This document shows, one piece after another, positions 15,208 through 64,000 of a stretch of DNA of 64,000 nt (the first letter of the stretch is position 1; each line of letters starts with the position of its first letter). The position numbers and the translations under genes were made by a program. Source of the stretch: a bacterium. Its GTDB lineage: Bacteria > Patescibacteriota > Patescibacteriia > HK-STAS-PATE-3. The notes beneath the pieces were generated by a model, which did not search any database, was not told the origin of the DNA, and was given only the letters and a program-made list of their open reading frames with translations. The stretch spans positions 4,065-68,064 of the forward strand of contig JAZDMR010000015.1 of NCBI GenBank assembly GCA_043800725.1, read 5' to 3'.

Positions 15208-15209
15208 AA

Positions 15210-30722: not shown

Positions 30723-30796
30723 TTGCGGGATCGTCTAGTGGTAGGACATCAGGTTCTGGACCTGAGTACGGGGGTTCGAATCCCTCTCCCGCAGCC
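30723..30796 (+). tRNA. tRNA-Gln (anticodon CUG), CCA encoded
   Basis: The cloverleaf was built by hand. Acceptor TGCGGGA/TCCCGCA (7 bp), D-arm GTCT/GGAC, anticodon stem TCAGG/CCTGA with loop TTCTGGA (CTG at positions 34-36), T-arm GGGGG-TTCGAAT-CCCTC, discriminator G, then CCA. Confidence 0.85.
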
Positions 30797-30949
30797 AGTG
30801 TAGCGGGTGACGAATAGGAGCATCCTAAATAAGAGGCCAACAAAGCGGCTGGCGCGTTATATAATTAACCCACGGACTAAAGTCCCTTCCACCGGCACTT
30901 AAGTGCCGTCTTTGGGTCAGTTCCAAAGACCCGGCTTCAGCTGGGGTAT

Positions 30950-35078: not shown

Positions 35079-35081
35079 CTT

Positions 35082-36347: not shown

Positions 36348-39178
36348 AGCAAAGGTCCTGGATAATTTTAATAATTACCTTATTATCGGGTTTTGCGTTT
36401 ATGCAAACTGCGCTGTCTTCTGAAAACAACAGCCAGTCGAACAGCAATGCGCTGGAAGCTGAAATCGTGGTTAAATTCAATTTGCCGCCCCGATTGGGCC
36501 CGCCACAGAATATTGCCACCACCCCATGGCCAGAAGTAAATGATATTATTAACCAAGCAGAGATTTCAGCATTGTTTCCTTTGCAGAGCAGTAATGATCC
36601 AGTGCTGTTTTTAGCAAAACTTAATAATTCTCAGAATCGAGATTGGGCTATTAATCAGCTTGGAGAACTGTCAGTGGTAAATTATGTTGAGCCTAATTAT
36701 TATGTTGAGTTGGCTTATGTCCCCAATGACCCACTGCTAAATCAGCAATGGAATTTTACCAAGATAAATATGGCTGAAGCTTGGGATTATGACACAGTTG
36801 CTCCGAAATACGGCGGTGACCCGAGTATTGTCGTGGCTGTTTTGGATACCGGGACTGCTTATGAGGATTACATCGATCCCAATCCGGCTTACTGTATAAT
36901 AGGAGGAGATAAAGAAGGTATTTGCGTTGCCGAGAATGCCGAGTATGCCCAGGCGTCAGATTTTGCATCAACAGCTTTTGTGGCGGGGTATGATTTTATC
37001 AATGATGATACCCATGCTAATGATGATAATGGCCATGGTACGCATGTGTCAGGCACAATTGCTCAATCAACCAACAACAGCCTAGGCGCTGCTGGCACAG
37101 CTTTTAATTCGACAATTATGCCCATCAAGGTGATTGCCCGGGACGGTCTGGGCACTACGGCGGCTATTGCTCAGGGCATAGATTTTGCCCGTGAAAAAAT
37201 GGTTGATGTGATTAATATGAGCATTGGCACGATCAGCAACAGCCAAGTCATGCTGGATGCGGTTAAGCTGGCTGATCAGGCCGGTATTATTATGATTGCT
37301 TCAACCGGCAACAGCAGCGCAAGTTTTATCTATTATCCGGCTGCTTATGATCAAGTCATCGCCGTAGGCGCGACGGGAAATACCAGCGTAAATACCCGGG
37401 CATCATATTCAAATTATGGCGAAGGCATTGATTTGGTAGCTCCCGGCGGCGATGGATCATCTTCGATTGTCCAGCAAGGGTTTTCAAATCTGGATAATGA
37501 TGATTTGCCCCTTGATTTCACAACTTTTGGCTATGTCGGATATCAGGGAACTTCTATGGCAGCACCGCATGTCAGCGGAGGAGTGGCTCTGGCTCTAGCA
37601 TATGGTGTAAACAGTTCCGAGGTAGGCGATTTATTGCTTAGCTCAGCAGAAGACATAGGCGCTGACGGATATGACTTGGAAACCGGCTACGGTTTATTGA
37701 ATATCGAGGAATTATTTGTCCAGTTAACCACTGACAGTGATCCTCCGACTTCTAGCTTGTCAATTAATCCGGTAGAGCCCAACGGCGAAGGTGGCTTTTA
37801 TACCTCAACACCCATCATCAACCTAACCGCTGAAGACCAGCAGTCTGCGATTAAATCGATCTATTATCGTTGGGGCAGCGACGCATATCAGGAATACTCG
37901 GGGTCAATTTCCGCTCCGGAAGGAGTTAGCGAGCTTGACTACTACGCAGTGGACGTGGTTGACAATCAAGAAGTTGCCAAACATCAGGAAGTTAAAGTTG
38001 ACAAAACCGCCCCTGAAGTAAGTTTTAGTTACCCGTTTACCGGTGCGGCCACTTCATTGCGCCGGCATTACATCATCAGTCGAGCATCAGATGCCACTTC
38101 CAATATCAGTTATGTAACGGTAAATGGTATTCTGGCGGATTACCAACCGCCCGAGTTTGTGGCCACCATTCTTTTGAAGCCAGGCCTAAACACCGTAACC
38201 GTGGCAGCTTATGATCAAGCCGGACTTTCCAAGACCGTGACCGATACGATGCTTTATGATGTCTGGGTAAATGTATTAAGCGCGCCTTTATCAGCCAGGA
38301 GCCCATCCGTCAGAACTTTCTCGGCCGGCGGACAGAACCTAGGAGAAATTATGGCCTATCCGGAATCGTTTACCGGGGGAGTAAATATTGCTTCCGGGGA
38401 CGTTGATAAAGATGGTTTGACTGAATTTGTCACCTCTCCGGCTTCAAGCGGCGGCCCCCAGGTCAGAATCTTCAATTCTTTGGGGCAGCTGGAAAGCCAA
38501 TTTATGGCTTACTCATCCAGCTATCGCGCTGAGACCACCCTGGCGGTTTGTGATCTGGATAATGACGGACGCGATGAAATTATTACCGGCACGGGCGAGA
38601 GCCGAGCCCCGCACTTAAGAATTTTTCATGCTGACGGCTCTTTATATGGGCAGTTTTTTGCCTACCCCGAAAGCTATCGAATCGGCATTTCAGTAGCTTG
38701 CGGTGATGTTAATGGCGATTTAAACAACGACATTGTGGTCGCTCCCATTAATAACGGCGGTCCGCATGTCAGGATATTTGACGGGTTTGGTAATTTGCAA
38801 AGCCAGTTTTTTGCCTACCCCGAGTATTTTCGGATCGGCTTAGGGATTGCTGTGGGCGACGTAAACAATGACGGCAGGGGTGAAATTATCGTCGCTCCTT
38901 TGAAAAACGGCGGTCCGCATATCAGGGTATTTAACAACAGCGGCGAATTACTCAGTCAATTCTTTGCTTTTGCTGAGTTTTTTAAAGGCGGCGTACGGGT
39001 GTCTTCGGATGATGTTGATCAAGACGGCATTGACGATATTATTGTAGGTGCAGGCGTAGGGGGCGGACCTCATATCAGGATTTTTCAGGCCGACGGTCAG
39101 TTGATAAATCAATTCTATTCCTTTGACCTAAGTTTCCGGGGCGGCATCAATGTCGGTACTATTTACGAGCCTAAGTAA
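36344..39178 (+). CDS. Secreted subtilisin-like serine protease (S8) with I9-like propeptide, Ig-like middle domains and a C-terminal six-blade FG-GAP-like beta-propeller
   Basis: Signal peptide. The catalytic triad is VAVLDTGTAYED (Asp), HGTHVSGTIAQ (His) and GTSMAAPHVSGGVALAL (Ser). The C-terminal 290 aa consist of six repeats (GGP[HQ][VI]R[IV]F...SQFFAYPE.[FY]R.G..VA.GDVN.DG..EII), paralogous to the repeats of the 15210..16853 gene. Confidence 0.8.
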   Translation: MKQRSWIILIITLLSGFAFMQTALSSENNSQSNSNALEAEIVVKFNLPPRLGPPQNIATTPWPEVNDIINQAEISALFPLQSSNDPVLFLAKLNNSQNRDWAINQLGELSVVNYVEPNYYVELAYVPNDPLLNQQWNFTKINMAEAWDYDTVAPKYGGDPSIVVAVLDTGTAYEDYIDPNPAYCIIGGDKEGICVAENAEYAQASDFASTAFVAGYDFINDDTHANDDNGHGTHVSGTIAQSTNNSLGAAGTAFNSTIMPIKVIARDGLGTTAAIAQGIDFAREKMVDVINMSIGTISNSQVMLDAVKLADQAGIIMIASTGNSSASFIYYPAAYDQVIAVGATGNTSVNTRASYSNYGEGIDLVAPGGDGSSSIVQQGFSNLDNDDLPLDFTTFGYVGYQGTSMAAPHVSGGVALALAYGVNSSEVGDLLLSSAEDIGADGYDLETGYGLLNIEELFVQLTTDSDPPTSSLSINPVEPNGEGGFYTSTPIINLTAEDQQSAIKSIYYRWGSDAYQEYSGSISAPEGVSELDYYAVDVVDNQEVAKHQEVKVDKTAPEVSFSYPFTGAATSLRRHYIISRASDATSNISYVTVNGILADYQPPEFVATILLKPGLNTVTVAAYDQAGLSKTVTDTMLYDVWVNVLSAPLSARSPSVRTFSAGGQNLGEIMAYPESFTGGVNIASGDVDKDGLTEFVTSPASSGGPQVRIFNSLGQLESQFMAYSSSYRAETTLAVCDLDNDGRDEIITGTGESRAPHLRIFHADGSLYGQFFAYPESYRIGISVACGDVNGDLNNDIVVAPINNGGPHVRIFDGFGNLQSQFFAYPEYFRIGLGIAVGDVNNDGRGEIIVAPLKNGGPHIRVFNNSGELLSQFFAFAEFFKGGVRVSSDDVDQDGIDDIIVGAGVGGGPHIRIFQADGQLINQFYSFDLSFRGGINVGTIYEPK

Positions 39179-39624
39179 TGAGGCAAGCGGTTGCATATGT
39201 CCGTAATCATAAATGGTTAGCCGAACGTAAGGGAGTAAGGCAGTTTATTAAATTTTGCATTGTCGGAGTGGGCAACACTATCGCGGATTTCGTGGTTTAT
39301 TTTGCCTTAACTCGATATCTCGGCATTTTTTATTTAGTAGCGAATTTTATTTCGTTCATTACCGCGGCTACCTTAAGCTTTGTCTTGAATAAATTTTGGA
39401 CTTTCCGCGATAACCGCCGTCATGCTATAAAGGGCCAGTATGCCAAATTTCTGCTGGTTAGCACCATTGGGGCTGTTTTAGCAGAGGCAACATTGTTTTT
39501 ATTTGTCCACTATTTTAGCGTTAATGATTTGATAGCCAAGCTTTTAGTGGCGGGAATAATAGTTTTTTGGAATTTTTTTGCTAATAAGTACTGGACATTT
39601 CGCCAGAAAATTAATATTTCATAG
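39178..39624 (+). CDS. GtrA-family membrane protein (polyprenyl-phosphate-sugar translocation/synthesis accessory)
   Basis: 148 aa with 4 TM. The GtrA signature is IVGVGNTIADFVVYFAL...LNKFWTFRD and ...ANKYWTFRQK. Confidence 0.65.
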   Translation: MRQAVAYVRNHKWLAERKGVRQFIKFCIVGVGNTIADFVVYFALTRYLGIFYLVANFISFITAATLSFVLNKFWTFRDNRRHAIKGQYAKFLLVSTIGAVLAEATLFLFVHYFSVNDLIAKLLVAGIIVFWNFFANKYWTFRQKINIS

Positions 39625-39713
39625 CTTGTCAGGAAGTACGATTTTTGTTATGATATCGACGATTTAATCAGTATTTAATAAAGAGAAATTTATTGTTATC
39701 GCGCACGTTATAA

Positions 39714-40436
39714 ATGGCCCAATCCAAAACGGTACTCAGCGTTGTAATCCCGGCTTTTAACGAAGAGCAAAGATTACCCTCAACTCTCAAAATCATTTTA
39801 AAATATCTGCGGCAAACGTCTTTCGGTGCATTTGAGATCGTGGTGGTTAATGACGGAAGCACTGATCGGACAAGTGAAATAGCCAAGTCAGCCGGTCCTG
39901 AAGTACGCATAATTGATTTGCCCCGACCCAAAGGAGGCAAAGGACGGGCAGTTAAAGCCGGAGTCCTGGCTAGCCAGGGAGAATGGATACTATTGAGTGA
40001 TTCTGACTTATCAACACCCATTGAAACGCTGGAAAGGTTTTGGACGCTGAGACAGGATTACGATATTATTATCGGTTCAAGAGCCTTGCCGGACTCGATA
40101 ATTGTTAAAAGACAAAATCGTATCAAGGTGGGGCTGGGTAGACTGGGCAATAAATTAACTCAATGGCTGGTAGTTCCCGGGATGAAAGATACTCAGTGTG
40201 GTTTTAAACTTTATCGTCGTCGCTGTCATTTTTTATTTCAAAAGCAGAAAATTATCGGCTGGGGGTTTGATTTCGAGATTCTTTATCTAGCAAGAAAATA
40301 TGGCTTCCGGATGATTGAGGTGCCCGTCAGATGGACCAATGATCAGGCTAGCAAGGTACGACCTTATCATTATTTACTAACTTTTATTGAAATATTTACA
40401 GTCCGTTTGAATCATATTCGCGGATTATATCGATAG
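39714..40436 (+). CDS. GT2 glycosyltransferase, Dpm1/GtrB/ArnC-like polyprenyl-phosphate sugar synthase
   Basis: LSVVIPAFNEE, VVVNDGSTDRT and the DxD motif LLSDSDLSTP. A soluble 240-aa GT-A domain of Dpm1/GtrB type, next to a GtrA gene. Confidence 0.7.
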   Translation: MAQSKTVLSVVIPAFNEEQRLPSTLKIILKYLRQTSFGAFEIVVVNDGSTDRTSEIAKSAGPEVRIIDLPRPKGGKGRAVKAGVLASQGEWILLSDSDLSTPIETLERFWTLRQDYDIIIGSRALPDSIIVKRQNRIKVGLGRLGNKLTQWLVVPGMKDTQCGFKLYRRRCHFLFQKQKIIGWGFDFEILYLARKYGFRMIEVPVRWTNDQASKVRPYHYLLTFIEIFTVRLNHIRGLYR

Positions 40437-40452
40437 CTAAAAACTAAATATT

Positions 40453-41508
40453 ATGAGCCGACCAATTTTTGACCGTAAAAATATCCTGATCACCGGAGGC
40501 GCCGGATTTATCGGTTCGCACTTATGCGACGAGCTGGTAAAAGAGCATAAAGTTATCTGCCTAGATAATTTTTTAACTGGACAGGAAGAAAATATTAATC
40601 ATTTATTACAAAATCCTAATTTTGAGTTTATTAAGCATGATTTTACCGAACCGATTGACTTTGAGAATGAACTGGGCCTAAAGCCTTTCCAGGTTGAGTT
40701 CCAGGGTATTCAGGAGATTTATCACTTGGCTTCTCCTGCTTCACCCAAAGACTATCTGGACATGCCCATTGAAACTCTCATGTCTAATGCCCGGGCCACT
40801 CTCCATAGTTTGGAATTAGCAAAAAAGTACCAGGCTCGCTTGGTTTTTACCTCGTCAGCGACTATTTACGGAAGTCCTTTGGAAAAGACTCCTTACCCGG
40901 AAAATTATTGGGGGTATGTTGATCCTATCGGTCCTCATTCCGCTTTAAGCGAGGGAAAAAGATTTGCTGAAAGCTTAATGTTTCACTATAGAAAAAAACA
41001 TAAAATAAATGCTAAAATAGCTCGGATATTTAAAGTTTATGGCCCACGGTTGCGCATAAATGATGGACGGATGATTCCAGAAATGATTATTAAAGCTTTA
41101 AATAATGAACAAATTACCGTATATGGCGAAACAGACGAAACTATTTCCGCTTGCTATGTCAGTGATATTGTCGAGGGCTTGATTAGACTAATGAAGTCAA
41201 ACGAACTTGGCCCAATTAATTTAGGCACCAGCGAAGAGCGTCCTCTTAAAGAAATGGCTGAGATAATAAAAAAACTTTCCAATTCTAATTCCAAGATAAA
41301 GCTGGTCTCCGGTGAAAAAGGCGATTTCATCAATCATGGCACTCCAAATATCCGCTTGGCCAAGGAGCATCTTGGCTGGTTTCCGGTCGTATCTCTTGAA
41401 GACGGCTTGAGTCGAACCATTGATTATTTCAAAGGGGTGAAAAATATCACTATTAAACATTTTGAATCTTCAATTAACCAAACAGAAAAATCACATGAAA
41501 GAAAATAA
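40453..41508 (+). CDS. uxs: UDP-glucuronate decarboxylase (UDP-xylose synthase, SDR family)
   Basis: [41 protein letters not shown]...YHLASPASP matches UXS/ArnA-C-type SDRs almost position by position. An (S)YxxxK catalytic motif is present. Confidence 0.75.
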
Positions 41509-42673
41509 TCAATCATACATTTTTACCTCCGAATCAGTTACCGAAGGCCATCCGGATAAAGTCTGCGATCAAATTTCCGACTCGATTCTCGATGAGCTGT
41601 TGAAGCAAGATCCGGAAAGCAGAGCGGGAATTGAGACCCTGGCCACTACCGGATTAGTAGTTGTCGCTGGAGAGATCCGCACCAAAGGTTATGTTGATAT
41701 TGCTGAAGTGGCTCGTCAAACAATTCGTGAAATCGGATATACTGACCCAAATATGGGTTTTCATTGGCAGGACTGCGGCGTGATTGTGGCAGTTGACGAG
41801 CAAAGCCCTGATATTGCCCAGGGAGTAGACCAAGGAAAAGGCAAATTCAAAAAACAGGGCGCAGGCGATCAGGGCCTAATGTTTGGATATGCCACGAATG
41901 AAACTCCCGAATTAATGCCCCTACCGATCATGCTGGCCCACAAATTAGCACGGCAGCTGGCTAAAGTCAGAAAGAGCGGCTTATTGCCCTTCCTGGGTCC
42001 AGACGGCAAAACTGAAGTGGCCGTGGAATATGTTAATGGCAAAGCCGTACGTTTAAACACTGTGGTGGTAGCTTCACAGCATAGCGAGCAGGTAAGTGAA
42101 AAAAAGGTAGCCAGCTCGATCCTTAAACACGTTGTTACTCCGATTTGTAAACGTTGGCTGGATAAAAAAACCCGAGTGTTCATCAACGCCACCGGCCGAT
42201 TTGTCAAAGGCGGTCCGCCAGCTGATGCCGGGTTGACTGGACGAAAAATCATCGTCGATACTTATGGCGGACATGGTAGTCATGGCGGAGGCTGTTTTTC
42301 AGGCAAAGATCCTTCCAAAGTAGATCGATCAGCTTCCTATATGGCTCGCTATGTGGCCAAGAATATCGTGGCCGCGAAATTAGCCAAAAAATGTGAGATC
42401 CAGTTCGCTTATGTAATCGGAGTAGCTGATCCGATCAGTTTATTGATTGATACCAAGGGAACCGGAAGAATATCTGATCGGCTGCTTGAAAAGATCGTTC
42501 GTCAAAATATTGATCTTTCGCCTAGCGGCATTGTTCGACAGTTAAAGCTCAAGCGGCCCATTTATAAAAAAACAGCAGCCTATGGACATTTTGGTCGCCA
42601 AGAAAAAGACTTTACCTGGGAACAGCTCACTTTAGTTAGTCTACTTAAAAAGAAGGCCAGTAGATATTTATGA
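41495..42673 (+). CDS. metK: S-adenosylmethionine synthetase
   Basis: [32 protein letters not shown], and a C-terminal Gly-rich loop. Start placed at the ATG at 41495 ([10 protein letters not shown]...). Confidence 0.9.
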
Positions 42674-43587
42674 GCCGTATACTGGTAACCGGAGGTGCCG
42701 GATTTATCGGATCGCATTTAGCTGATCGCTTGGTGGAACAGGGCGATGAGGTTATTATTGTTGACGATTTATCAAGCGGTAATCAAGAATATCTGCCTGA
42801 CCAGGCAAAGTTTCATCAGCTTGACATTCAAGCCCCCCAAACAGCTGATTTGATTCTCGATCAGAAACCAGAGAAAATTTACCACTTAGCCGCGCAGAAA
42901 AATTTACGTTTCTCTCTGGAAAATCCGGCAGCTGACGCTTCAATTAATATTTTAGGTAGCTTGAATATTCTCGAAGCGGCCCGTCAGGCAGGTACCAAAT
43001 CAATCATTTTTGCTTCCACCGGGGGTGCTATCTATGATCAGCACGCAGATCGTCCGACTAATGAACAAGCGCTGACTCGACCGCTGTCTCCCTATGGTGT
43101 CGGAAAGCTGTCAACCGAACATTACCTGTATATGTACGAGCAGGTTTATCAATTACCCTATATTGCGTTGAGACTGTCAAACGTTTACGGTCCGCGGCAG
43201 GATCCCAAAGGGGAAGCCGGCGTGGTAGCAATTTTCCTAGATGCTATTACCAAGAATAATACGCCCAAGATCAACGGTGACGGCCAGCAGACCAGGGATT
43301 ACGTGTTTGTGGATGATGTGGTCAGCGCGTTTGTGAATGCTGGGAAATATGATAAATCAGGAATTTTCAATATCGGTACTGGCAAGGAAACCAGCGTTTT
43401 GGGGCTGTGGCAGTCGATTGTCCAAACGACCGGGACTAAGATAGTCCCTGAGCATGGACCGGCTATTGCGGGAGAATTACTAGCAAGCAGTTTATCCTCA
43501 AAACAAGCCCGGTCTGACCTGAACTGGTCTGCTCAAATAGATTTATCACAAGGAATTAAAAAAACCGTAGACTGGTTTAACAAATAA
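42670..43587 (+). CDS. NAD-dependent nucleotide-sugar epimerase (GalE-like UDP-hexose 4-epimerase family)
   Basis: [34 protein letters not shown] and the YxxxK motif ([13 protein letters not shown]). 305 aa extended SDR. Confidence 0.7.
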
Positions 43588-43588
43588 T

Positions 43589-44893: not shown

Positions 44894-44907
44894 TTAAAGT
44901 ATCAGAT

Positions 44908-48915: not shown

Positions 48916-48920
48916 AAAGT

Positions 48921-51164: not shown

Positions 51165-51174
51165 AGTAGTATAT

Positions 51175-52203: not shown

Positions 52204-52205
52204 AG

Positions 52206-53756: not shown

Positions 53757-53847
53757 CGTTCTATTTTAACAATGCCAAACCTCGGAGCTCTTGTAACAGA
53801 GAAAATGACAATTGAAACTTTAATCAGTCGGCGGTGCATGATGATGG

Positions 53848-56820: not shown

Positions 56821-57112
56821 AAGCGCATTTTATGGTTAGTCATACAATAAGCAATATATCATTAAATGGCACTGTTTTCAAATATGTGATGTTTGACTTA
56901 CATGGTCATTAGGATTGTGGAGATTTCATTAATCTTTAAGAAGTTGTTAGCAGTAATTGTGTTATTAGTGAGAACCGTTCATATTGTAAAATGATGAATT
57001 ATATGATAATCTCTCTACTTAGAATATATTAAGATACTCTTTAAATCTCCTAAGTATAAAAAAAAATATTTTGAAATTCGATAATCCTAAGAACTAAAAA
57101 TCCACAACTGAA

Positions 57113-59287
57113 ATGTTATTTCTCAGAAAGATGCTTTATAGTCTATCGTGGGTGGGTATAGTCGCAGCCTCTCTTTTGATATTATTGAGATTTATTTTAT
57201 TTAGGGAAATTGATTGGTTAGGAAAAATAGATGTTATCCTAACATTACTTATTCTGATTGATTTCTTGATCCTAGTTACCATTTTGAATGAACCGAAACT
57301 AAAGGTTGAAAAATTTTGGCTTTGGGTATTAATTATCTTATGGTTTTATAATATAGTTTGGGGGGTCTCGTTAAAATACTTCCCATATCCTGGTATCCAA
57401 GAATTTAACGCTACTTTATATTATAGCGTTATTTTATTAGGCTTAATGTCTTTACGATTCGTAAGAAAAAAAATTTATAATTACTTTACATTATTAATAA
57501 AAGAAAACATAAAAATAGAAAATGAAAATAGCAAAGAAAAAATTATTGAAATGGCTCGTCAAAATGAATTTACGAATAAATTTAAAACAGTTAATAAAAT
57601 ACCGTTTATAAGGAACATAGCAAGTTTTTTTTATAAGCAAGGCAATTATTATTCTCTCGGTTTAATTATTGCAGTTATTGTTTTAATAGCTCTAAGCCTT
57701 CCTTTATTTGGTAGGTTTTTAAATGATGATGAATTTCATTTATTTAATGTCGGCAAGGGCATTGTTGAGACGCATCAATGTATTGCCTGGAATTTTTTAC
57801 AAGACGCTCCAGGATATAGCTATCCCAACGACTGTTTGATTTCTAATGTAATTTCAGTATTTTTTTTAATTTTTGGAACCTCACTTTTTAGCGCAAAGAT
57901 TCCTTTTTTAATTTTTTCAGTTATAAATGTATTCTTGTTATATTTTTTAGGAAAGAAGATATTTAATAAAAACATTGCTCTTGCTTTAATATTGTTCTAT
58001 TGTACAAATCCCTTTTTTGTATATCATGCCGGCTATATCAGAATATATGCTATGCTTATTACTTTTTCTTTGTTGGTTTTTATATATATTTTAAAATTAT
58101 TTGAAAAAAATAAGGATAATATTTATTCAAAGACCATTTTGTATACTATTATTCTAATATCATTATTATTTATTGGTTACAAGCTTAGAATAACATTTAT
58201 CACTATTGTGCCGGGTACATTATTACTAATTTCTATTAAAGTAATCAGTTTGATAAAAAACAAGAGTTTAAAAACATATCTCTTTTGTGGTCTTTTGACG
58301 GGAATTATAGCTGTGCCCACACTAATGAGCTATTATCAGTCAAGATTTAGTGGATTTTATGATTACAGCGGTAGATTTGATTGGCACACTTTTAACATAA
58401 CTCTTTTAAATTTTGATCCCCAAATAGCAAAATTATTTTTTTTAGCATTAACCGTGATTTGTTTATTATTCATATTTAAAAAATATATACAAAAAAATAC
58501 GAAACATTCAAAGTGTTTTAGTTTTGAAAGTATAATTTATTTATTAATTTTGTATATATTTATTAATCTTTCCTACGGTTTATTTGTGACCCAGGATAAC
58601 ATGATTCCGCGCTATGCAATATATTTAGTAATTCTTAATATTATTATATTAATACCGGCTATATATATTATTTTATTGCCTCTTGTTAATAAAAAATTAT
58701 CATATTTAATATTAATATTTGTTATAGTTGTTAATAATATTATTTTATGGAAATCAGACACAATTAATGATAAGCTTGGTAGCAAATACAATTACATTGA
58801 TATGTATGATATAACAGGCACAACAAGCCCCACGCGAGCAAAAGAACAATATAAGGTTATGTACGATAAAATTCTTGAAAATATAGAGCCAGAAGATAAC
58901 AAAGTTGCATTAGTAACTGCATTTTTTAACGATCCTCAGTTAGTAGCTTTGGCAAAGTATAAAGATAAAATTGATCTAATTGGAATAGGGGACTACTCTG
59001 GAGCTTACAAATTTGATGATTTACTCCCTGACTATCCTTATAAAGAAATAATGGTTGATAGAGAAAATTATGAAGAACAAGATAACGGTTCCAGACATCC
59101 ATTAAAGAAAGAAGCCCTTGTGGAATTTCAAGGTCAGTATGATAAAATATTTATCACCTGGCCTACAAGAAAAAATTATAAACATGAATACGTATTAGAA
59201 AGTGCCCAGGATCTTGATTTTATCAAAATATCTGGTGAGAATGTCGATCAATCTAATATCGAGATATACTATTACGAGAAAAACTAA
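57113..59287 (+). CDS. Polytopic membrane protein (724 aa, N-terminal about 540 aa TM-rich, soluble C-terminal domain); GT-C-like candidate encoded in a strongly AT-rich island
   Basis: Very low GC. It has many TM helices with Lys/Asn/Ile-rich loops. No family-level motif recognised. Confidence 0.3.
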   Translation: MLFLRKMLYSLSWVGIVAASLLILLRFILFREIDWLGKIDVILTLLILIDFLILVTILNEPKLKVEKFWLWVLIILWFYNIVWGVSLKYFPYPGIQEFNATLYYSVILLGLMSLRFVRKKIYNYFTLLIKENIKIENENSKEKIIEMARQNEFTNKFKTVNKIPFIRNIASFFYKQGNYYSLGLIIAVIVLIALSLPLFGRFLNDDEFHLFNVGKGIVETHQCIAWNFLQDAPGYSYPNDCLISNVISVFFLIFGTSLFSAKIPFLIFSVINVFLLYFLGKKIFNKNIALALILFYCTNPFFVYHAGYIRIYAMLITFSLLVFIYILKLFEKNKDNIYSKTILYTIILISLLFIGYKLRITFITIVPGTLLLISIKVISLIKNKSLKTYLFCGLLTGIIAVPTLMSYYQSRFSGFYDYSGRFDWHTFNITLLNFDPQIAKLFFLALTVICLLFIFKKYIQKNTKHSKCFSFESIIYLLILYIFINLSYGLFVTQDNMIPRYAIYLVILNIIILIPAIYIILLPLVNKKLSYLILIFVIVVNNIILWKSDTINDKLGSKYNYIDMYDITGTTSPTRAKEQYKVMYDKILENIEPEDNKVALVTAFFNDPQLVALAKYKDKIDLIGIGDYSGAYKFDDLLPDYPYKEIMVDRENYEEQDNGSRHPLKKEALVEFQGQYDKIFITWPTRKNYKHEYVLESAQDLDFIKISGENVDQSNIEIYYYEKN

Positions 59288-59334
59288 TTACTCCCTAACC
59301 ATTTTAAGTCAGGTAGAGTTTATTCTGTATAAAC

Positions 59335-60603
59335 TTATCTTTTTAAAAAAGATGGCAGTACCTGTGGTTTAAAAATTAATAAATAGTATATAAAGAAAGC
59401 CATCCAGCTGCTCAACGTTATTGCAACACATATACCGAGAATACCCCATAGATATCCGAAAAGTAATATGAGTAATATTTTCAGTATATCTACAGATATG
59501 CTTTCAATGCTCGTCTCCCTATGTAATAAATGTGATTGAAAAAGCACATCAAATATGTAAGAAACCGCGCTAAACGGGAAAGTTAGAGCTAGTATCATAA
59601 AATATATTTTTGTGATTTGGTAATCTGTCGGGAAAAATAAAGAAATATACCCGTACCCGATTGCTAAAACAATTAGTGTAAAGATAATAGAGATTAAGAA
59701 AAATATTTTTAGCTTGGATTTGATGGATTGTACCAAATCCCCCTTTTTTTGTTTAGCGAAATCCGCATATAATAAAGGATCTATTATTCTTACAACCATA
59801 GCAAATTTATTTCTTAAATTATCAGCCACCGAAAAAGTAGAAAGTGTAGTGTAACCCAAGAATAGCCCTATTATAATTGAGGATATTTTTGTACTCGTTA
59901 TGTTGATTATATTAGCTGGGATCATCTTTAATCCAAATGAAACGCATTTTTTATCGATATTATTTTTTTTGAATTCTGAGAGTAGATGATCTTTTTTGGA
60001 AACATAAATAAACCCTATCCAGCTTAACAGGACCAACGAACCAAATGATGATATAACGAATATTATGATATTATGTGTATAATACGCTGAAGCAAGTGCT
60101 GTTAGATTTACTATTAGACCGATGCTGATTTCCCAAGCGGCTTTTTCTTTGAAACGCTTAGTAGATATTAAATAATTTATAAAACTTGTATTAACAATCT
60201 GGCCGAATATAGCATAGATAAAGACTATGCACAGTAAGATAGCGATTAGACTTGATTGTTGAAGAAAGAAAATGATAATCACAACAAAACCAAAAAGCAT
60301 TACGATCGCTGCTAATCTCAGTCTATAAAAAAAGGCATAAAAAAAAGTACCCTTGAATCCGTTAGCAATGGCTGACTTTACACCATTTGTTATATATGAA
60401 CCAGTGAGAGCCAATACCCAGGTTTCGATAGCTAAGACAAACTGGTACCGTCCATAATCGTCGATAGATAGATTACTTAAAATTATCGGCAAGGTAATCA
60501 TGCTGATCCCTAGCGATACTATCTGCGGGAGAAAAAGAATAACACCACTAGAAAAATATTTTTGCTTCACTTTTAGAATAAATTGAGATATCTCTCTGAA
60601 CAT
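59335..60603 (-). CDS. Wzx-like oligosaccharide flippase (polysaccharide biosynthesis protein, MOP superfamily)
   Basis: 422 aa with about 12 TM. The N-terminal GVILFLPQIVSLGISMITLPIILSNLSIDDYGRYQFVLAIE pattern is typical of Wzx/RfbX proteins. Confidence 0.45.
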   Translation of the reverse strand: MFREISQFILKVKQKYFSSGVILFLPQIVSLGISMITLPIILSNLSIDDYGRYQFVLAIETWVLALTGSYITNGVKSAIANGFKGTFFYAFFYRLRLAAIVMLFGFVVIIIFFLQQSSLIAILLCIVFIYAIFGQIVNTSFINYLISTKRFKEKAAWEISIGLIVNLTALASAYYTHNIIIFVISSFGSLVLLSWIGFIYVSKKDHLLSEFKKNNIDKKCVSFGLKMIPANIINITSTKISSIIIGLFLGYTTLSTFSVADNLRNKFAMVVRIIDPLLYADFAKQKKGDLVQSIKSKLKIFFLISIIFTLIVLAIGYGYISLFFPTDYQITKIYFMILALTFPFSAVSYIFDVLFQSHLLHRETSIESISVDILKILLILLFGYLWGILGICVAITLSSWMAFFIYYLLIFKPQVLPSFLKR

Positions 60604-60604
60604 T

Positions 60605-62104
60605 TTATTTTTTCAAAATGTATATTGTCCTTGTTTTGTTCACACTCCCAATCTTTTCAATATCTGAGAAATATAATTTCGAGAAATGTATAAAATTTGT
60701 ATAATTATATTCTTCAGTCTTTGCCCTTCCCAGAATATTGGTCCATTTTTTGGCCTTAACATCTTTTTCCGAAGGGAACTCAATGATTAAAAACTTTTTA
60801 GTTATTTTGGAAAACGATTCCATAATTGTTTTTAACGATCCGAAATCCTCAGTACGGTGAAATAGATGATGGATTATCCCCATGGCTAATACACAATCAT
60901 ATGAATTGTTTATATCGCTAAATTTTTTGTAGCTAAAAGTACATCCTTCAATGCCTAGGGTATCGATTATTATTTTGCAAGTTTCTATATATTTTTTGTT
61001 GTAATCTATGCCATAACATTTAGTAAACTGGTATTTCAATTTACTCAAAAATACATATAGACCCAGATTAGAACCAATATCCAAGAAGCTGTCTATTTTT
61101 TTTATATCTGCTATTTGGTTCAAAGCCTTATCAACGAGCCTGAATTTTGGTTCAGTATTCCAGAGAGGTTTGGCGTCAATCGACAATGGCGTTATTTGAT
61201 TGTCAGCGATATTATAGTTTTGATAGCCTCTTACCTGCACCTCGTTTTCTTTAGGGAACTTTATAGTGTCGATATGCGCTGATTCTTGAGGCAATTCAAG
61301 GTTGCTATGTTTTAGTAGTTTTTCTATTTCTTGTTTGAGCACTTTCCAGCCAGCTTCAGTCAATAAGTCCGTTTCAGGAGCTGTCGCCCTCCTAATGATA
61401 TCGGTGTAAATAGTATCGTTCATCTCTTTTTGCACAAAATCAATCAATTTATTTAGCTCATCGTCACTGGAATTCTGTGCTGTAGTTGATAATAGAGTGG
61501 TAGTTCTTCTGCCTAAACCATAGTAATAAATGTGTAAAATAAACTGCAGTTTCAGAAAATTATTTTTGGCATAAATAAGGTTTTTTCTTTGTTCTCTGGT
61601 ATTTAAACTATTTTTTTCATTTATCAGCAAAAAAGAATTCCCCCCATAATCTATTAACTTTATCTTTCCGTAATTATTCTCCATATAGTTGCAATGATCG
61701 ACAAAACCAAAATCCCAATAACAGATATTCTTTTTTATTAAATCCATTTCCAAATCACAGATTTGAGTTAAATATTTAATAAAATATTTTGGATCGGTTT
61801 TTGTGTGGTTTAATTTTTCGTAGGGATATATGATAAATTTATCAGAGAATATTTTTAAGCGATACAAATGTTCTGAGTTTACGTTTCTTTTTATAAATTC
61901 CTTGGTTATATCGAGATAACCTTGCCCGAAGACGGAAAGTACTTTTACAACCACGTTCATATTGTCTTTATTGCGACACAAATAAATTCTTCCATCCTTG
62001 CCTTGACCTAATATTTCAACAACCTTATAACTGTTTTTCAGCGTGGCCATCGTTTTAATGTGGTTGTATTTATTACGGATGATTGAATATAGTGTTTTCA
62101 ACAT
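60605..62104 (-). CDS. Bifunctional protein-kinase-like domain + FkbM-type SAM-dependent methyltransferase (WbdD-like glycan-modifying/chain-terminating enzyme candidate)
   Basis: N-terminus: a Gly-rich loop and Lys (ILGQGKDGRIYLCRN...VVVKVL), a catalytic-loop-like DHCNYMENN and a DFG-like LIDYGG. C-terminus: FkbM/class I MTase motif I FLDIGSNLGLYVF and a post-I acidic YGIDYN. Confidence 0.5.
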   Translation of the reverse strand: MLKTLYSIIRNKYNHIKTMATLKNSYKVVEILGQGKDGRIYLCRNKDNMNVVVKVLSVFGQGYLDITKEFIKRNVNSEHLYRLKIFSDKFIIYPYEKLNHTKTDPKYFIKYLTQICDLEMDLIKKNICYWDFGFVDHCNYMENNYGKIKLIDYGGNSFLLINEKNSLNTREQRKNLIYAKNNFLKLQFILHIYYYGLGRRTTTLLSTTAQNSSDDELNKLIDFVQKEMNDTIYTDIIRRATAPETDLLTEAGWKVLKQEIEKLLKHSNLELPQESAHIDTIKFPKENEVQVRGYQNYNIADNQITPLSIDAKPLWNTEPKFRLVDKALNQIADIKKIDSFLDIGSNLGLYVFLSKLKYQFTKCYGIDYNKKYIETCKIIIDTLGIEGCTFSYKKFSDINNSYDCVLAMGIIHHLFHRTEDFGSLKTIMESFSKITKKFLIIEFPSEKDVKAKKWTNILGRAKTEEYNYTNFIHFSKLYFSDIEKIGSVNKTRTIYILKK

Positions 62105-62133
62105 AGGCTTCTATTCTAGCAAAAAACTTAATA

Positions 62134-63189
62134 TTATTTCTTAAATAGTTGTAAATACTGGTCAACGAAAATATCTAGATTGAAAAGTTTTACAGTTTCA
62201 ATGCTTTTGACTGACATTTTGGTGATTTGAGAGTCATTGTCTATCAGATGAGATACTTCTTGGGCCATCTGATCAAAATTTCTATTTTCTACCAAGATAC
62301 CCTGGGCCAGTTTAACGATTTCATTTGTAGCTGAGTTATCATAGGCGACAATTGGTAAGCCGCTAGCCATAGCTTCTACTGTCGTAATACCGAACATTTC
62401 ATGGATTGAGGTAGTTATATAAATCTTCGATTCTGAAAGTAATTGTATTTTTTTGTTTTCAGGAACGTTACCATGGAAGGTGATGTAGTCATCTAGGTAC
62501 AAATTTGAAACAAGTTTCAATGTTTGGTCATAGTACCCTTGCCTAACTGTTTCATAACCACCAATTATATCAAGGTGAATCTTGGGATTTATTTTATGGA
62601 GCCGATAGAACATTTTTATCAAATCGAAGTAGTTTTTTCGGGAGCAGATTCTGCCAATTGTTATTATATTGTATCTTTTGAAGTCGCTTTTTTTATAACG
62701 ATCGATCTGAACCGGATTATAGATAACTTTAATTCTATCAAGATACTTACCGCATAAAGATACCCTCTTAGCATAATGAGAAACGGCCACTAAATTATCG
62801 TAAAGCCATGCTACTACGAATGGTATTCTTTTTATAATCCAATTAGGATATTCCGAAACGCTACCACAGAAGACTAGATTGGTAATTAATTTACTCCTAA
62901 AAATTTTAAAGAAAAAAGTAAGGTAAAAATAGTTCTTATAGGGCTCGAAGACACACAAAATATCAATTTTACATTTGAATAGTATTTTTAAATAATTCTT
63001 CCAGTTTAAATAGTAAACATGAAAATTGTCCTCAAAAGAGTAATTTAACGTCTGATAATCTTGGTGCTCGGCCAATATATAAATTTTGCTGTTTTTATCT
63101 TTTTCAATCAGGCCGGTACCAAGATGTCTCATGATAACGGGTATGCCGCCGTTTATTTTGCTGTATTTATAAAAGAATAGATAATTCAT
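62134..63189 (-). CDS. GT4-family glycosyltransferase
   Basis: HEMFGITTVEAMASGLPIVAYDNSATNEIV (EX7E). 351 aa and AT-rich. Confidence 0.6.
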   Translation of the reverse strand: MNYLFFYKYSKINGGIPVIMRHLGTGLIEKDKNSKIYILAEHQDYQTLNYSFEDNFHVYYLNWKNYLKILFKCKIDILCVFEPYKNYFYLTFFFKIFRSKLITNLVFCGSVSEYPNWIIKRIPFVVAWLYDNLVAVSHYAKRVSLCGKYLDRIKVIYNPVQIDRYKKSDFKRYNIITIGRICSRKNYFDLIKMFYRLHKINPKIHLDIIGGYETVRQGYYDQTLKLVSNLYLDDYITFHGNVPENKKIQLLSESKIYITTSIHEMFGITTVEAMASGLPIVAYDNSATNEIVKLAQGILVENRNFDQMAQEVSHLIDNDSQITKMSVKSIETVKLFNLDIFVDQYLQLFKK

Positions 63190-63929
63190 TGATTGAGCTG
63201 ATTAATCTTGTCCGCTAGCCATTTTTGGTCATGAAAGTGTAAGTCACGGTCGTGTAAAAGAAAACACCCCCTCCTGTCATCTATGAACTCGATATCATTG
63301 AGCTTAACATCTGAGTCTATCATGTATCGGTTGCAGATTATTTTTTTAATATTTGTTTTCTTTAGGGAATTGTATGTTTTAATGCTCCACACATTACCAG
63401 GAGGTACAAATATTGTAATGGGTTTCTCAAAATATTCCTCCAGGATTTTTTGTGATTGAGTGATGTGTTGCTCGTGTACTGTCTGATCTAGATACGGCCA
63501 GAACTCTCTATGAAATTCTCGATTTGAGTAAAGCAGGCGAGGTAAATGTTTACCGACAACACAATGCGTTAAACCATGGTTGGCAATAATAATCTCTCCT
63601 CTCTTAAAAGCGTCTTTTAATACTTTAGCTTGAGCCGAAAACTTTTTATTGAAAGGGATTAAGTTTGATTTTTCATCAACCCATGCGGCGGTTACTGAAA
63701 TAATAGGGACAATTGAATTCCGCTTGAACAGCTCTATTACTTTTTCCCAGGTATCGCTGCTTACTTCTGGATAAGGTCCCCATGTCCTAAATGGCTTGAT
63801 GCGCTTGAAAAACCATAAATTAGCTAGGGGAAAATAAAAATATAGGATTTTGTGCAAATAGAATCTCTTTTTTCCGTATTGATTGAACCGCTTGGTCGAT
63901 GCTCCAACATCATCTATTCTCCAAAGCAT
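63186..63929 (-). CDS. Polysaccharide-deacetylase-like protein (DUF2334-like)
   Basis: An N-terminal RIDDVGAS motif resembles the DUF2334/PgaB-like deacetylase N-terminal DD motif. His-containing segments (ANHGLTHC) are present. 4-nt overlap with the upstream GT4. Confidence 0.35.
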   Translation of the reverse strand: MLWRIDDVGASTKRFNQYGKKRFYLHKILYFYFPLANLWFFKRIKPFRTWGPYPEVSSDTWEKVIELFKRNSIVPIISVTAAWVDEKSNLIPFNKKFSAQAKVLKDAFKRGEIIIANHGLTHCVVGKHLPRLLYSNREFHREFWPYLDQTVHEQHITQSQKILEEYFEKPITIFVPPGNVWSIKTYNSLKKTNIKKIICNRYMIDSDVKLNDIEFIDDRRGCFLLHDRDLHFHDQKWLADKINQLNQ

Positions 63930-64000
63930 ATTTATTTCTTAATACAAATAAAAAGACCCGTATAATAAGCGGAGTTTGTTTTTTTGTCATTGAGAAATAA

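Follow-up and report, generated by a model that had tools for sequence, protein, structure and literature searches.

Multi-component transmembrane glycosylation systems have been reviewed and include a variant that combines a cytoplasmic GT-A enzyme with a separate small membrane protein; Wzx-type flippases are used in such systems, several GT-A/GT-C pairs occur per genome in Bacillus and Lactococcus, and in Lactococcus one GtrA-type flippase serves several pairs (PMC8035078). In streptococci, GtrB and a GT-C enzyme glycosylate Ser/Thr-rich disordered regions (PMC12041528). The locus described here lies in a 64-kb stretch of DNA (the window) from the metagenome-assembled genome of an uncultivated, small-genome, Kerfeldbacteria-like bacterium of the Patescibacteria (CPR), and encodes together three GT-C-fold transferases, five GT4 Leloir transferases, two MOP-family flippases and two candidate polyprenyl-phosphate glycosyltransferases of the Dpm1/GtrB/ArnC class, along with MetK and SAM methyltransferases. 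The analysis confirms that these genes make up a genuine cluster for envelope-sugar assembly, longer than 25 kb. Our reading of it, to which we assign a probability of roughly 60% on the sequence evidence, is that it directs envelope-glycan biosynthesis and decoration by the multi-component transmembrane logic outlined above. The features are as follows, with coordinates in the window.

34320..39178, plus strand: upstream co-directional neighbors, a DUF5656-like polytopic membrane protein, an HtrA-like PDZ protease and an S8 subtilase with FG-GAP repeats
39178..39624, plus: GtrA-family 4-TM protein, 148 aa (PF04138 GtrA_DPMS_TM, E 7.4e-30)
39714..40436, plus: GT2a, 240 aa, candidate Dpm1/PpgS-type polyprenyl-phosphate glycosyltransferase (Glycos_transf_2, 3.8e-28)
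40453..41508, plus: UDP-glucuronate decarboxylase (UXS)-like SDR (phmmer against human UXS1)
41495..42673, plus: MetK, S-adenosylmethionine synthetase (all three S-AdoMet_synt domains)
42670..43587, plus: GalE/TviC-like SDR, 4-epimerase candidate (Epimerase, 5.6e-59)
43589..44893, plus: NDP-sugar 6-dehydrogenase, WecC/Cap5O (UDP-HexNAc) branch (TIGR03026, 418 bits)
44908..45870, plus: GT2b, 320 aa, predicted GtrB/ArnC/AglJ-type polyprenyl-phosphate glycosyltransferase (Glycos_transf_2)
45867..46946, plus: GT4_1 (Glycos_transf_1 and Glyco_transf_4), overlapping GT2b and GT-C A
46936..48915, plus: GT-C A, 659 aa, PMT_2-like (invariant R-D pair, confident GT-C model)
48921..50003, plus: GT4_2 (Glyco_trans_1_4, 5e-29)
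49995..51164, minus: GT4_3 (Glycos_transf_1, 1.4e-33; Glyco_transf_4, 1.5e-26)
51175..52203, minus: GT4_4, divergent GT-B transferase (Glycos_transf_1, 8.5e-8, weak)
52206..53756, minus: MurJ-type MOP flippase (PF03023, 2.5e-61)
53848..56820, minus: GT-C B, 989-990 aa (confident GT-C fold model)
56821..57112: AT-rich intergenic region separating the divergent genes B and C (GC falling from 0.46 to 0.28)
57113..59287, plus: GT-C C, 724 aa, PMT_2 family (PF13231, 32.6 bits; cut-off 26.1)
59335..60603, minus: Wzx-type flippase (Polysacc_synt, 1.4e-10; 68-73% identical in L012 and L015)
60605..62104, minus: two-domain protein, weakly kinase-like N-terminal half and class I SAM methyltransferase C-terminal half (Methyltransf_31, 3.3e-7)
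62134..63189, minus: GT4_5 (Glycos_transf_1, 7.3e-31; 68-71% identical in L012 and L015)
63186..63929, minus: DUF2334/CE4-type deacetylase-like protein (DUF2334, 8.3e-11; Polysacc_deac_1, 2.3e-7)
63930..64000, minus: 3' end (71 nt) of one more gene of the cassette, encoding a SAM methyltransferase of 209 aa (C-terminus match on L002)

The gene classes named in an earlier, sequence-only reading of this DNA are all present at the coordinates it gave, backed by HMM or fold matches far better than chance, with the corrections set out below. That reading did not list the UXS-like decarboxylase, the WecC/Cap5O-like UDP-HexNAc dehydrogenase or MetK. The genes are tightly packed. The start of gtrA overlaps the stop of the S8 subtilase gene (TAATG), every junction from GT2a through GT4_2 is an overlap or a gap of ≤16 bp, and the sole larger gap in the plus-strand string is that between GtrA and GT2a (89 bp). 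GT2b, GT4_1 and GT-C A overlap in series and form a translationally coupled trio. The minus-strand string runs B-flippase-GT4_4-GT4_3, with gaps of 91 bp (B/MurJ), 2 bp (MurJ/GT4_4) and 10 bp (GT4_4/GT4_3). Stops and starts also overlap among the upstream neighbors, which are possibly cotranscribed with the locus and might have a part in the glycan system.

The GtrA protein has four hydrophobic helices, and GT2a, which is soluble, lacks a TM helix and carries a DSD motif, finds its best PDB matches in GtrB (5ekp, 3e-11), ArnC and DPMS (5mlz), with alignments to the NCBIfam PpgS and Dol-P-hexose transferase models that span ≈200 of 240 residues. The pair, which is followed by the UXS-like decarboxylase, resembles a split DPMS/PpgS-type enzyme. 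In GT2b, by contrast, the catalytic domain (DAD motif) and two C-terminal TM helices (241-259 and 272-290) form a single polypeptide, and the protein aligns end to end, both helices included, with ArnC (9hwj, 1e-12) and GtrB (5ekp). The closest solved relatives of the two enzymes are thus GtrB (5ekp), ArnC (9hwj and 9bhc) and DPMS (5mlz), which supports their predicted membership of the polyprenyl-phosphate glycosyltransferase class rather than of the soluble polymerizing GT2s, and agrees with the proposal of a GtrA-family protein and two Dpm1/GtrB-like GT2s. GtrA is present in L007 and missing from the otherwise collinear L016, and is therefore not obligatory.

All three large membrane proteins had been called GT-C-like, and this stands: A and B model confidently as GT-C enzymes and not as transporters, and C passes the PMT_2 threshold. 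The lipid-linked donor interpretation accordingly withstood the check proposed for it, which turned on these folds and on the class of the GT2s. In each protein an acidic motif, either conserved or plausible, is predicted to lie in the first outward loop, where GT-C enzymes bear the catalytic Asp. In A, this is the invariant R101-D102 (numbered on the 661-aa translation of 46930-48915), which in the model begins helix 101-116 after the third TM helix; in B, it is the candidate catalytic D37, after TM1; and in C, an N-D-D-E motif at 205-208. B is built from an N-terminal GT-C membrane module of ≈430 aa, an extracytoplasmic α/β domain and two CBM35/CBM6-like β-sandwiches. The GT-C enzymes outnumber the lipid-P-sugar synthases three to two, which counts against our preferred explanation.

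A different acceptor has to be weighed here. The GT-C enzymes might act in protein glycosylation rather than on a wall polymer, moving lipid-linked sugars or oligosaccharides onto an S-layer, pilins, or products of the genes immediately upstream (proteases, and Asn/Ser/Thr-rich membrane proteins with TSP3 repeats). The models would be the streptococcal Pgf/GtrB system, which acts on Ser/Thr-rich regions, the Ppm1/Pmt system of mycobacteria and the Agl system of archaea. GT2a and GT2b do match the PgfS and AglJ models, the streptococcal GtrB and GT-C enzymes set a precedent (PMC12041528), and the tight co-directional string includes secreted and membrane proteins, among them the subtilase overlapping GtrA and two whose low-complexity regions are rich in Asn, Ser and Thr (11 N-X-S/T sequons in 439 aa). 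We nevertheless consider this unlikely: the two β-sandwiches of B favor a glycan acceptor, neither an STT3 WWDxG motif nor a Pfam STT3 match is present in A, B or C, the subtilase and TSP3 proteins do not adjoin the locus in relatives, and a locus with five GT4s, two MOP flippases and an exchanged cassette more closely resembles one for polysaccharide synthesis.

The nucleotide-sugar enzymes would make a uronic-acid and/or pentose precursor. The sequence-only reading counted two epimerases; the first is instead UXS-like, matching human UXS1 (2b69 and 4gll) over residues 7-327 at E 2e-87 (297 bits, phmmer), while the second stands as a 4-epimerase candidate, with NCBIfam scores for GalE (171 bits) and TviC (121 bits) each under cut-off. 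The dehydrogenase is closest to PDB 4r16 (1e-83), 3g79 and Cap5O, versus 1e-37 for UDP-Glc dehydrogenase. Since a UXS-like enzyme needs UDP-uronic acid but the adjacent dehydrogenase belongs to the HexNAc branch, a pentose donor is uncertain.

Five GT4 transferases are found rather than the six proposed, the weakest being GT4_4, which has a 40% identical ortholog adjoining GT4_3 in L003; GT4_2 has orthologs in L003 (47%) and L016 (45%). Both a MurJ-like and a Wzx-like flippase are borne out by their Pfam matches, and with the GT4s they bear out one half of the suggested Wzx-dependent heteropolysaccharide pathway. On the other hand, no priming phosphoglycosyltransferase, Wzy, chain-length regulator or LCP-type ligase occurs within the 64 kb of the window or the neighborhoods of relatives (≈20 kb in each of five relatives for the priming enzyme), so the backbone pathway is incomplete as seen. 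An archaeal-type, Agl-like route would dispense with that priming enzyme: GT2b would place the first sugar on polyprenyl monophosphate and the GT4s would lengthen the chain, which, once flipped by a MOP flippase, B would transfer en bloc, with GT2a/GtrA and A or C attaching the last sugar outside. The overlapping GT2b, GT4_1 and A genes fit such a scheme, as do the methyltransferases and sugar dehydrogenase of the locus, which we take to be parallels of Haloferax AglP and AglM. The top NCBIfam match of GT2b is AglJ, essentially full length (profile positions 2-287 of 293), but its 109 bits fall far under the cut-off of 325, and B is without STT3 motifs. Priming enzymes, moreover, often lie outside glycan loci, as wecA does for the E. 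coli O-antigen clusters, and we regard the archaeal-type route as very improbable.

The core (39.2-56.8 kb) is collinear in relatives. L007 has the order GtrA-GT2a-UXS-MetK-DH-DH-GT2b-GT4-A-B, and L016 retains GT2a-UXS-MetK; the GT2b-GT4_1-A adjacency is kept in both, and L016 also has a membrane protein and HtrA-like gene upstream of GT2a. A lies within 10 kb of B in L003, L005, L006, L008 and L010, and a C-type GT-C gene diverges from B in L004, L005, L006, L012 and L015. The three GT-C genes together are the conserved state in the lineage and, given that several GT-A/GT-C pairs per genome are known (PMC8035078), are less unusual than had been claimed.

This conservation bears on whether the locus is one system at all. 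It could be a set of independent envelope modules, with two to three GT-A/GT-C pairs that decorate separate polymers, similar to the CsbB/YfhO, YkcBC and YkoST pairs of Bacillus, beside housekeeping MurJ and MetK and an unrelated acquired Wzx-type cassette. A, B and C indeed have no detectable relationship to one another, the cassette has a separate history, and a single Lactococcus GtrA-type flippase serves several pairs (PMC8035078). MetK is a universal housekeeping enzyme, whose place in the locus is unchanged in L007 (75% identity) and L016 (74%), and the MurJ-type protein, which reaches 207 bits with TIGR01695, the MurJ equivalog model (under its 235.6 cut-off), may have a housekeeping role in flipping lipid II, with peptidoglycan genes (PBP and Mur ligase) elsewhere in the window. 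Against this, collinearity from the HtrA-like gene through B and the C-like gene (L016 and L017) persists between genomes with 25-50% protein identity, the tight coupling of GT2b-GT4_1-A and of MurJ-GT4_4-GT4_3 argues for co-function, and Wzx replaces MurJ in relatives, which marks the position as a glycan flippase slot. Separate modules are, on balance, quite unlikely.

The locus is nonetheless composite, with a conserved core and a laterally acquired low-GC cassette. The B-C intergenic region is both the GC break and the left edge of this laterally exchanged cassette: GC is ≈44% in the core and 27-37% in the remainder of the window, beginning at 56.85 kb, and GC3 is 0.24-0.39 in cassette genes versus 0.37-0.49 in the core. 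Lateral exchange follows from the identity of the cassette to those of L012 and L015 (58-73%; 58% for C), while the adjoining B is 31-39% identical. The B-C junction is found also on NCBI contig JBDRPK010000028.1. Of the kinase-methyltransferase proposed earlier, the methyltransferase half holds; the kinase assignment is weak (Pkinase E 0.05; profile against PDB titin kinase 0.012 and Aurora 0.016), in a protein with invariant G-x-G-K-D-G, K54 and I-D-Y-G. The deacetylase-like protein, correctly named in that reading, has no TM helix by hydropathy, is likely cytoplasmic, and is 71% identical in L015. The contiguous locus of ≈25 kb is real, but its right end is the window edge and not biology, and the cassette continues beyond: Logan contig L002, whose deacetylase and GT4_5 match those in the window at 100% identity, encodes the full methyltransferase, and in L015 the cassette runs on with additional GT4s and methyltransferases.

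We infer the donor sugars, lipid carrier and acceptor from these assignments. In the envelope-glycan reading, the GT4s would work at the cytoplasmic face, assembling a polyprenyl-linked oligosaccharide that MurJ/Wzx-type proteins would flip. In parallel, GT2a (with GtrA) and GT2b would charge polyprenyl phosphate with single sugars from UDP-sugars; the UXS-like gene beside GT2a suggests that GT2a might load a pentose, for instance Xyl or XylNAc. After flipping of the lipid-P-sugars, A, B and C would transfer the sugars outside the membrane to a growing or wall-attached polymer, with the CBM35/6-like domains of B gripping the glycan acceptor. The cassette may add an outer portion or decoration that is specific to the strain (for instance sugars that are O-methylated, de-N-acetylated or possibly carry methyl-phosphate), for which MetK would contribute SAM; if so, its exchange would amount to serotype-like surface variation. 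Set beside the systems already described, this locus is a further example of a known logic, in which a lipid-linked sugar donor is combined with a GT-C membrane transferase.

From position 39178 to its right-hand end, the window is filled by a dense run of glycan genes, a claim of the sequence-only reading that ORF listing and HMM scans bear out, although its count of six GT4 genes has to be lowered to five. Predicted promoters and terminators were as numerous as in shuffled sequence. The genes are listed below; A, B, and C denote the three large GT-C membrane proteins, GT2a and GT2b the two GT2s of the Dpm1/GtrB class, and GT4_1 to GT4_5 the GT4 transferases.

39178-39624, + strand: GtrA-family protein with four TM helices (PF04138, E 7e-30)
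39714-40436, + strand: GT2a, 240 aa, no TM helix, DSD motif
40453-41508, + strand: SDR resembling UDP-glucuronate decarboxylase (UXS; human UXS1, 297 bits, E 2e-87)
41495-42673, + strand: MetK (SAM synthetase)
42670-43587, + strand: GalE/TviC-like SDR
43589-44893, + strand: NDP-sugar dehydrogenase, WecC/Cap5O branch (4r16, 1e-83)
44908-45870, + strand: GT2b, 320 aa, two C-terminal TM helices, DAD motif
45867-46946, + strand: GT4_1
46936-48915, + strand: membrane protein A, predicted GT-C fold
48921-50003, + strand: GT4_2
49995-51164, - strand: GT4_3
51175-52203, - strand: GT4_4
52206-53756, - strand: MurJ-type protein (Pfam MurJ, 2.5e-61)
53848-56820, - strand: membrane protein B
57113-59287, + strand: membrane protein C, PMT_2 (PF13231)
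59335-60603, - strand: Wzx (Polysacc_synt, 1.4e-10)
60605-62104, - strand: kinase-like/methyltransferase protein
62134-63189, - strand: GT4_5
63186-63929, - strand: DUF2334/CE4 deacetylase-like protein
last 71 nt of the window: 3' end of a further methyltransferase gene

Both GT2s have relatives among ArnC, GtrB, and DPMS, which upholds their earlier description as candidate polyprenyl-phosphate glycosyltransferases rather than soluble polymerizing GT2s, and both belong to the GT-A-fold Dpm1/GtrB/ArnC class, with a DAD motif in GT2b and DSD in GT2a. GT2b aligns end to end with ArnC (9hwj, 1e-12) and GtrB (5ekp), with both C-terminal helices covered, and its top NCBIfam model is AglJ. The solved structures closest to GT2a are GtrB, ArnC, and archaeal DPMS, and PpgS and Dol-P-hexose transferase models align with it across ≈200 of its 240 residues. 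GT2a is itself devoid of TM helices and comes after a protein that consists solely of the GtrA/DPMS transmembrane domain. A split variant, in which a cytoplasmic GT-A enzyme is accompanied by a separate membrane protein, has been described (PMC8035078), and GtrA and GT2a are predicted from their sequences to form this very arrangement.

The SDR encoded after GT2a shows high full-length similarity to characterized UXS: it matches human UXS1 over residues 7 to 327 at 297 bits, against 110 bits for the next non-UXS match. The conserved adjacency of GT2a and this UXS-like gene, to which GtrA is added in the window and in L007 (a 1.03-Mb Patescibacteria contig), suggests that the donor sugar may be a pentose. 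UDP-XylNAc, known from Bacillus cereus, is as plausible here as UDP-Xyl because the neighboring dehydrogenase belongs to the HexNAc branch, with 4r16 matched at 1e-83 versus just 1e-37 for UDP-Glc dehydrogenases. A literature search on Und-P-xylose returned nothing specific, and the GtrA/GT2/UXS arrangement hints at a new, testable lipid-linked pentose donor.

The view that the large membrane proteins are GT-C enzymes also stands, for B and A by fold and for C by a PMT_2 gathering score, with acidic motifs in all three. Protein C scores 32.6 bits against PF13231 (gathering score 26.1); A reaches 16.6, which is under threshold, whereas its homologues P0046, P0047, P0050, and P0052 do carry this domain. 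B has no PF13231 match and indeed no Pfam (none at E ≤10), NCBIfam, or PDB sequence match. Searches of PDB chains with B, an A-family profile, and C gave nothing useful, and fold comparison was required. Modeling predicts a GT-C fold for A; B was modeled with AlphaFold2 from 40 homologues (pLDDT 87.4), and its second-best structural match is AftD. The C-terminal domains of B span residues ≈597 to 715 and ≈866 to 988. In the family alignments, an Asp that is invariant or nearly so directly follows the first canonical TM helix of B (D37) and of A (R101-D102), and C harbors an N-D-D-E motif at 205 to 208, giving the locus polytopic GT-C-fold transferases whose first extracytoplasmic loop carries an acidic motif. 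The WWDxG motif of STT3 occurs in none of A, B, and C. B was ruled out as an STT3-type OST, having neither an STT3 match nor WWDxG and a likeness that is limited to the fold.

Profile comparison with hhalign found no significant relation between A and B or between A and C, so that the three are not recent paralogues, and they represent three different GT-C lineages. Among 1.84 billion cluster representatives at 50% identity, the B family numbers 45,963 at E ≤1e-3 and 10,550 at ≤1e-30; a family of ≈46,000 such representatives escapes current Pfam and NCBIfam models. Sampled members show scattered weak matches to the GT-C clan (PMT_2, PTPS_related, YfhO, DUF2079, and DUF6044), some contain an ILEI domain, and YfhO (PF09586), unmatched by B itself, is matched weakly by 2 of 34. 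Look-ups of the exact products B, C, and P0001 found none on record.

Flippase candidates are provided by the small GtrA-type protein and by Wzx, an MOP protein recognized by its Polysacc_synt match, and a MurJ-type protein is also there. The MurJ-type protein scores 207.3 bits against TIGR01695, for which the cut-off is 235.55. It suggests itself as the occupant of the glycan-flippase slot of the locus because relatives have a Wzx in this place and because its gene lies 2 bp from GT4_4. Its likeness to the relatives' Wzx is at the superfamily level alone, and the two are not orthologous. L003 and L007 have Wzx-type genes near B as well, located directly upstream of GT4_4-GT4_3 in the former and of B itself in the latter. 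In view of its TIGR01695 score (207 versus 235.6 bits), the MurJ-type protein may alternatively have a housekeeping role, a question on which the PBP transpeptidase and Mur ligase genes at 379-5092 also bear; we conclude from these peptidoglycan genes that the organism makes a murein wall. No match to Wzy_C, an O-antigen polymerase, or Wzz was obtained in the window, where a divergent Wzy is easily overlooked, and Wzy, Wzz, and an LCP ligase are missing from the relatives' neighborhoods too, the last also from the window. Nor did the ORFs scanned over the 64-kb window (some short ORFs left out) contain a Glycos_transf_4 or Bac_transf match indicative of a priming phosphoglycosyltransferase; the same is true of contigs L001, L012, L015, and L016. 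The primer may be encoded elsewhere in the genome; the alternative that the AglJ-like GT2b starts the chain on polyprenyl monophosphate, as in Agl, has a low probability.

The locus proteins were also found in an NCBI MAG (GCA_043827125.1), and the relatives of A and B come from Candidatus Kerfeldbacteria or "Patescibacteria group" MAGs. Our search for related loci was based on 11 close sequences. In L007, GtrA-GT2a-UXS-MetK-DH-DH-GT2b-GT4_1-A-B are contiguous. Contigs L016 and L017 follow the gene order of the window through a DUF5656-like membrane protein, an HtrA-like protease, and GT2a-UXS-MetK-DH-GT2b-GT4_1-A-GT4_2, and carry GT4-GT2-Wzx-B on the opposite strand, after which come a C-type GT-C, in divergent orientation, and a further Wzx. 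Their proteins are just 24 to 52% identical to those of the window, the exception being MetK at 74%; GtrA and the S8 subtilase are absent from this collinear relative, and Wzx stands where the window has the MurJ-type gene. Such collinearity, together with the gene coupling, weakens the notion that the locus is a mere neighborhood of independent modules. MetK (74 to 75% identical) is embedded at the same position in distant relatives. The SAM that it makes may serve the several methyltransferases of the cassette described below, or the gene may simply be a conserved housekeeping neighbor. In three low-GC relatives (L005 13222-14730, L008 13282-14790, and L012 5099-6607), B is adjoined by a conserved protein of 502 aa that has a single N-terminal TM helix, matches no Pfam family, and has no copy in the window. 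No homologue exists in the window for any of the 502-aa, 357-aa, and 668-aa ORFs found alongside B or the cassette in relatives.

The core of the locus (39.2-56.8 kb) gives way to a block of different composition precisely in the region between B and C (56.8-57.1 kb), where GC content drops from ≈0.44-0.46 to 0.20-0.37 and stays low up to the end of the window; over 56821-64000 it is 0.27-0.37. GC3 is 0.24 to 0.39 in five genes of this block, soluble proteins included, versus 0.37 to 0.49 in the core. The cassette C-Wzx-kinase/methyltransferase-GT4-deacetylase recurs in the metagenomic contigs L012 (without the deacetylase) and L015 at 58 to 73% identity, as against 31 to 39% for the adjacent B; B and C are likewise arranged divergently in L004, L005, L006, L012, L015, and L016. 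In L015, the cassette goes on with a methyltransferase, a 357-aa protein, two GT4s, two methyltransferases, and another GT4; in L002, a short contig with products 100% identical to those of the window, the methyltransferase and the 357-aa protein follow as well. This protein of ≈357 aa (L002 2-733; L015 8943-10016), located just past the right edge of the window, has no Pfam match on record. We read the block as a variable cassette that is probably exchanged laterally at one fixed position, much as happens in O-antigen and capsule loci. Misassembly was ruled out as the cause of the GC break, since the B-C junction also occurs on an NCBI contig whose end lies within C, and a phage or plasmid origin of the cassette was discarded, as it has no blastn match in phage and plasmid collections. 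In the kinase-like/methyltransferase protein, the methyltransferase domain is clear, and the kinase half is weak (E 0.012-0.05) with conserved G-loop, Lys, and DYG motifs; comparison with the PDB gave weak kinase matches and no WbdD.

Upstream of GtrA, a co-directional string running into the glycan locus is headed by genes for two single-pass membrane proteins (32346-33665 and 33680-34294) with Pro-rich or Asn/Ser/Thr-rich low complexity and bacterial TSP3 (calcium-binding) repeats, the first of which has 11 N-X-S/T sequons in 439 aa. The genes at 34320-39178, which all overlap or abut, encode a polytopic membrane protein that homology to L016 marks as DUF5656-like, a Trypsin_2/PDZ protease resembling HtrA, and an S8 subtilase of 944 aa that contains FG-GAP repeats and whose stop codon overlaps the start of GtrA (TAATG). 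In L016, too, the locus is preceded by the genes for the membrane protein and the HtrA-like protease, but not by the subtilase. Their position at the head of the string makes the TSP3 proteins possible glycoprotein acceptors, and the tight, co-directional spacing of the whole upstream group, together with the PMT-like folds, would fit protein glycosylation in place of a wall-polymer system. Two observations weaken this explanation: relatives have neither the subtilase nor the TSP3 genes at their loci, and the modeled CBM-like domains of B favor a glycan acceptor.

Elsewhere, the window encodes an HTH_3 and SocA/Panacea-domain protein, a PanA-type antitoxin (6242-7009), and large predicted surface proteins at 11515-16853 and 20293-22200, comprising a protein of 1230 aa with Big_9 and He_PIG domains, another of 547 aa that combines fn3 with FG-GAP repeats, and one of 635 aa with three Big_5 domains and Peptidase_C39_2. 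ARAGORN and Rfam detected a single RNA gene, tRNA-Gln(CTG), at 30724-30797.

The enzyme classes, folds, gene coupling, and conservation of the locus are established by these data, and the wall-polymer system that we favor would probably operate on them as follows. The GT4s would assemble a lipid-linked oligosaccharide, which MOP proteins would then flip; in parallel, GT2a (with GtrA) and GT2b would make polyprenyl-P-monosaccharides, from which A, B, and C could carry out sugar transfer outside the membrane. Cassette enzymes would methylate, possibly phospho-methylate, and deacetylate the product, with MetK giving local SAM. A bolder scheme, which we think improbable, is an archaeal-style bacterial route without a pyrophosphate primer: start by an AglJ-like GT2, extension by GT4s, flipping by MOP proteins, and transfer or polymerization by B, with the split Dpm1-type enzyme and the UXS-like decarboxylase yielding polyprenyl-P-pentose (Xyl or XylNAc) and cassette swaps next to B setting the surface type. 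If true, cassette swapping would govern episymbiont-host attachment or phage susceptibility.

Genomes of Patescibacteria (CPR) measure ≈1 Mb, and for many of these organisms a life attached to other cells is assumed. In such a genome, a single conserved glycan locus that includes a swappable cassette takes up more than 27 kb, which points to a surface polymer on which host recognition, phage, or predation, for example, exerts diversifying selection. Literature searches on envelope glycans, GT-C proteins, or glycan loci in Patescibacteria returned nothing specific; the locus offers concrete targets in two candidate lipid-P-sugar synthases and three GT-Cs with a predicted catalytic Asp.

All three sequence-testable defining features of multi-component transmembrane glycosylation are present, and the logic of the locus appears to be that of the three- or multi-component systems GtrABC, CsbB/GtcA/YfhO, GacIJKL, and CsdAB/CD/EF (PMC8035078, PMC11127046). 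The Gram-positive systems reviewed in PMC8035078 (CsbB/GtcA/YfhO, GtlA/GtlB, GacI-GacJ-GacK-GacL, and lactococcal CsdAB/CD/EF with CflA) share with it a C55-P-sugar synthase of GT-A fold, which is linked to the membrane or else is soluble and accompanied by a small membrane protein of its own, and a GtrA- or Wzx-type flippase. Also shared are divergent GT-C transferases (PMT_2 type or without a Pfam domain) that bear an acidic motif in a loop, the occurrence of several pairs in one organism, and extracellular carbohydrate-binding domains on some GT-Cs. Here, in contrast, two synthases and three GT-Cs share one conserved locus with GT4s, MOP flippases, and sugar-nucleotide enzymes, B itself matches neither YfhO nor PMT_2, and the host belongs to a Patescibacteria lineage without known teichoic acid or rhamnan. 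The pentofuranose system of Citrobacter youngae O1/O2 combines PPPRS, a MATE flippase, and a GT136 GT-C with a C-terminal CBM (PMC11127046); the lipid-phosphate-pentose idea, an MOP/MATE-superfamily flippase, auxiliary epimerases, and a GT-C with a carbohydrate-binding C-terminal domain (compare the CBM-like domains predicted in B) are common to both, but its donor synthase is a PRPP-dependent phosphoribosyltransferase (PMC11127046), whereas a Dpm1-type GT2 adjoins a UXS-like decarboxylase here. O-antigen glucosylation by GtrA-GtrB-Gtr(type) of Shigella and Salmonella phages likewise involves a GtrA protein, a GtrB-class GT2, and a GT-C, with a variable part that differs among strains; the present system has no prophage context or phage match, belongs to a large biosynthesis locus on the chromosome, and can dispense with GtrA in a collinear relative.

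In mycobacteria, the soluble Dpm1-like GT2 PpgS (Rv3631) is encoded beside a small GtrA-family membrane protein (Rv3632) and a GT-C (Rv3630), and AftD, like the model of B, combines a GT-C with CBMs; PpgS-family scores here are 33 to 67 bits against a cut-off of 370, and there is no arabinogalactan context. The Haloferax volcanii Agl pathway (AglJ, AglD, AglR, AglS, AglB, AglM, and AglP) shares AglJ as the top model of GT2b, a second Dol-P-hexose-type synthase, a Wzx-like flippase, GT-Cs, a sugar dehydrogenase, and SAM methyltransferases, but the present host is bacterial, the STT3/AglB signature (WWDxG) is absent, the elongating enzymes are GT4s, and all scores lie under equivalog cut-offs. 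E. coli O9a WbdD, reportedly a kinase-methyltransferase chain terminator, also unites kinase-like and SAM methyltransferase domains on one polypeptide within a glycan locus; in the protein described here, the domain order is reversed and the kinase half is weakly supported, and the window has no ABC transporter. Set beside these systems, the locus adds new members and arrangements rather than a new principle: a CPR host, two synthases clustered with three unrelated GT-Cs, the UXS coupling, the B family, and cassette exchange.
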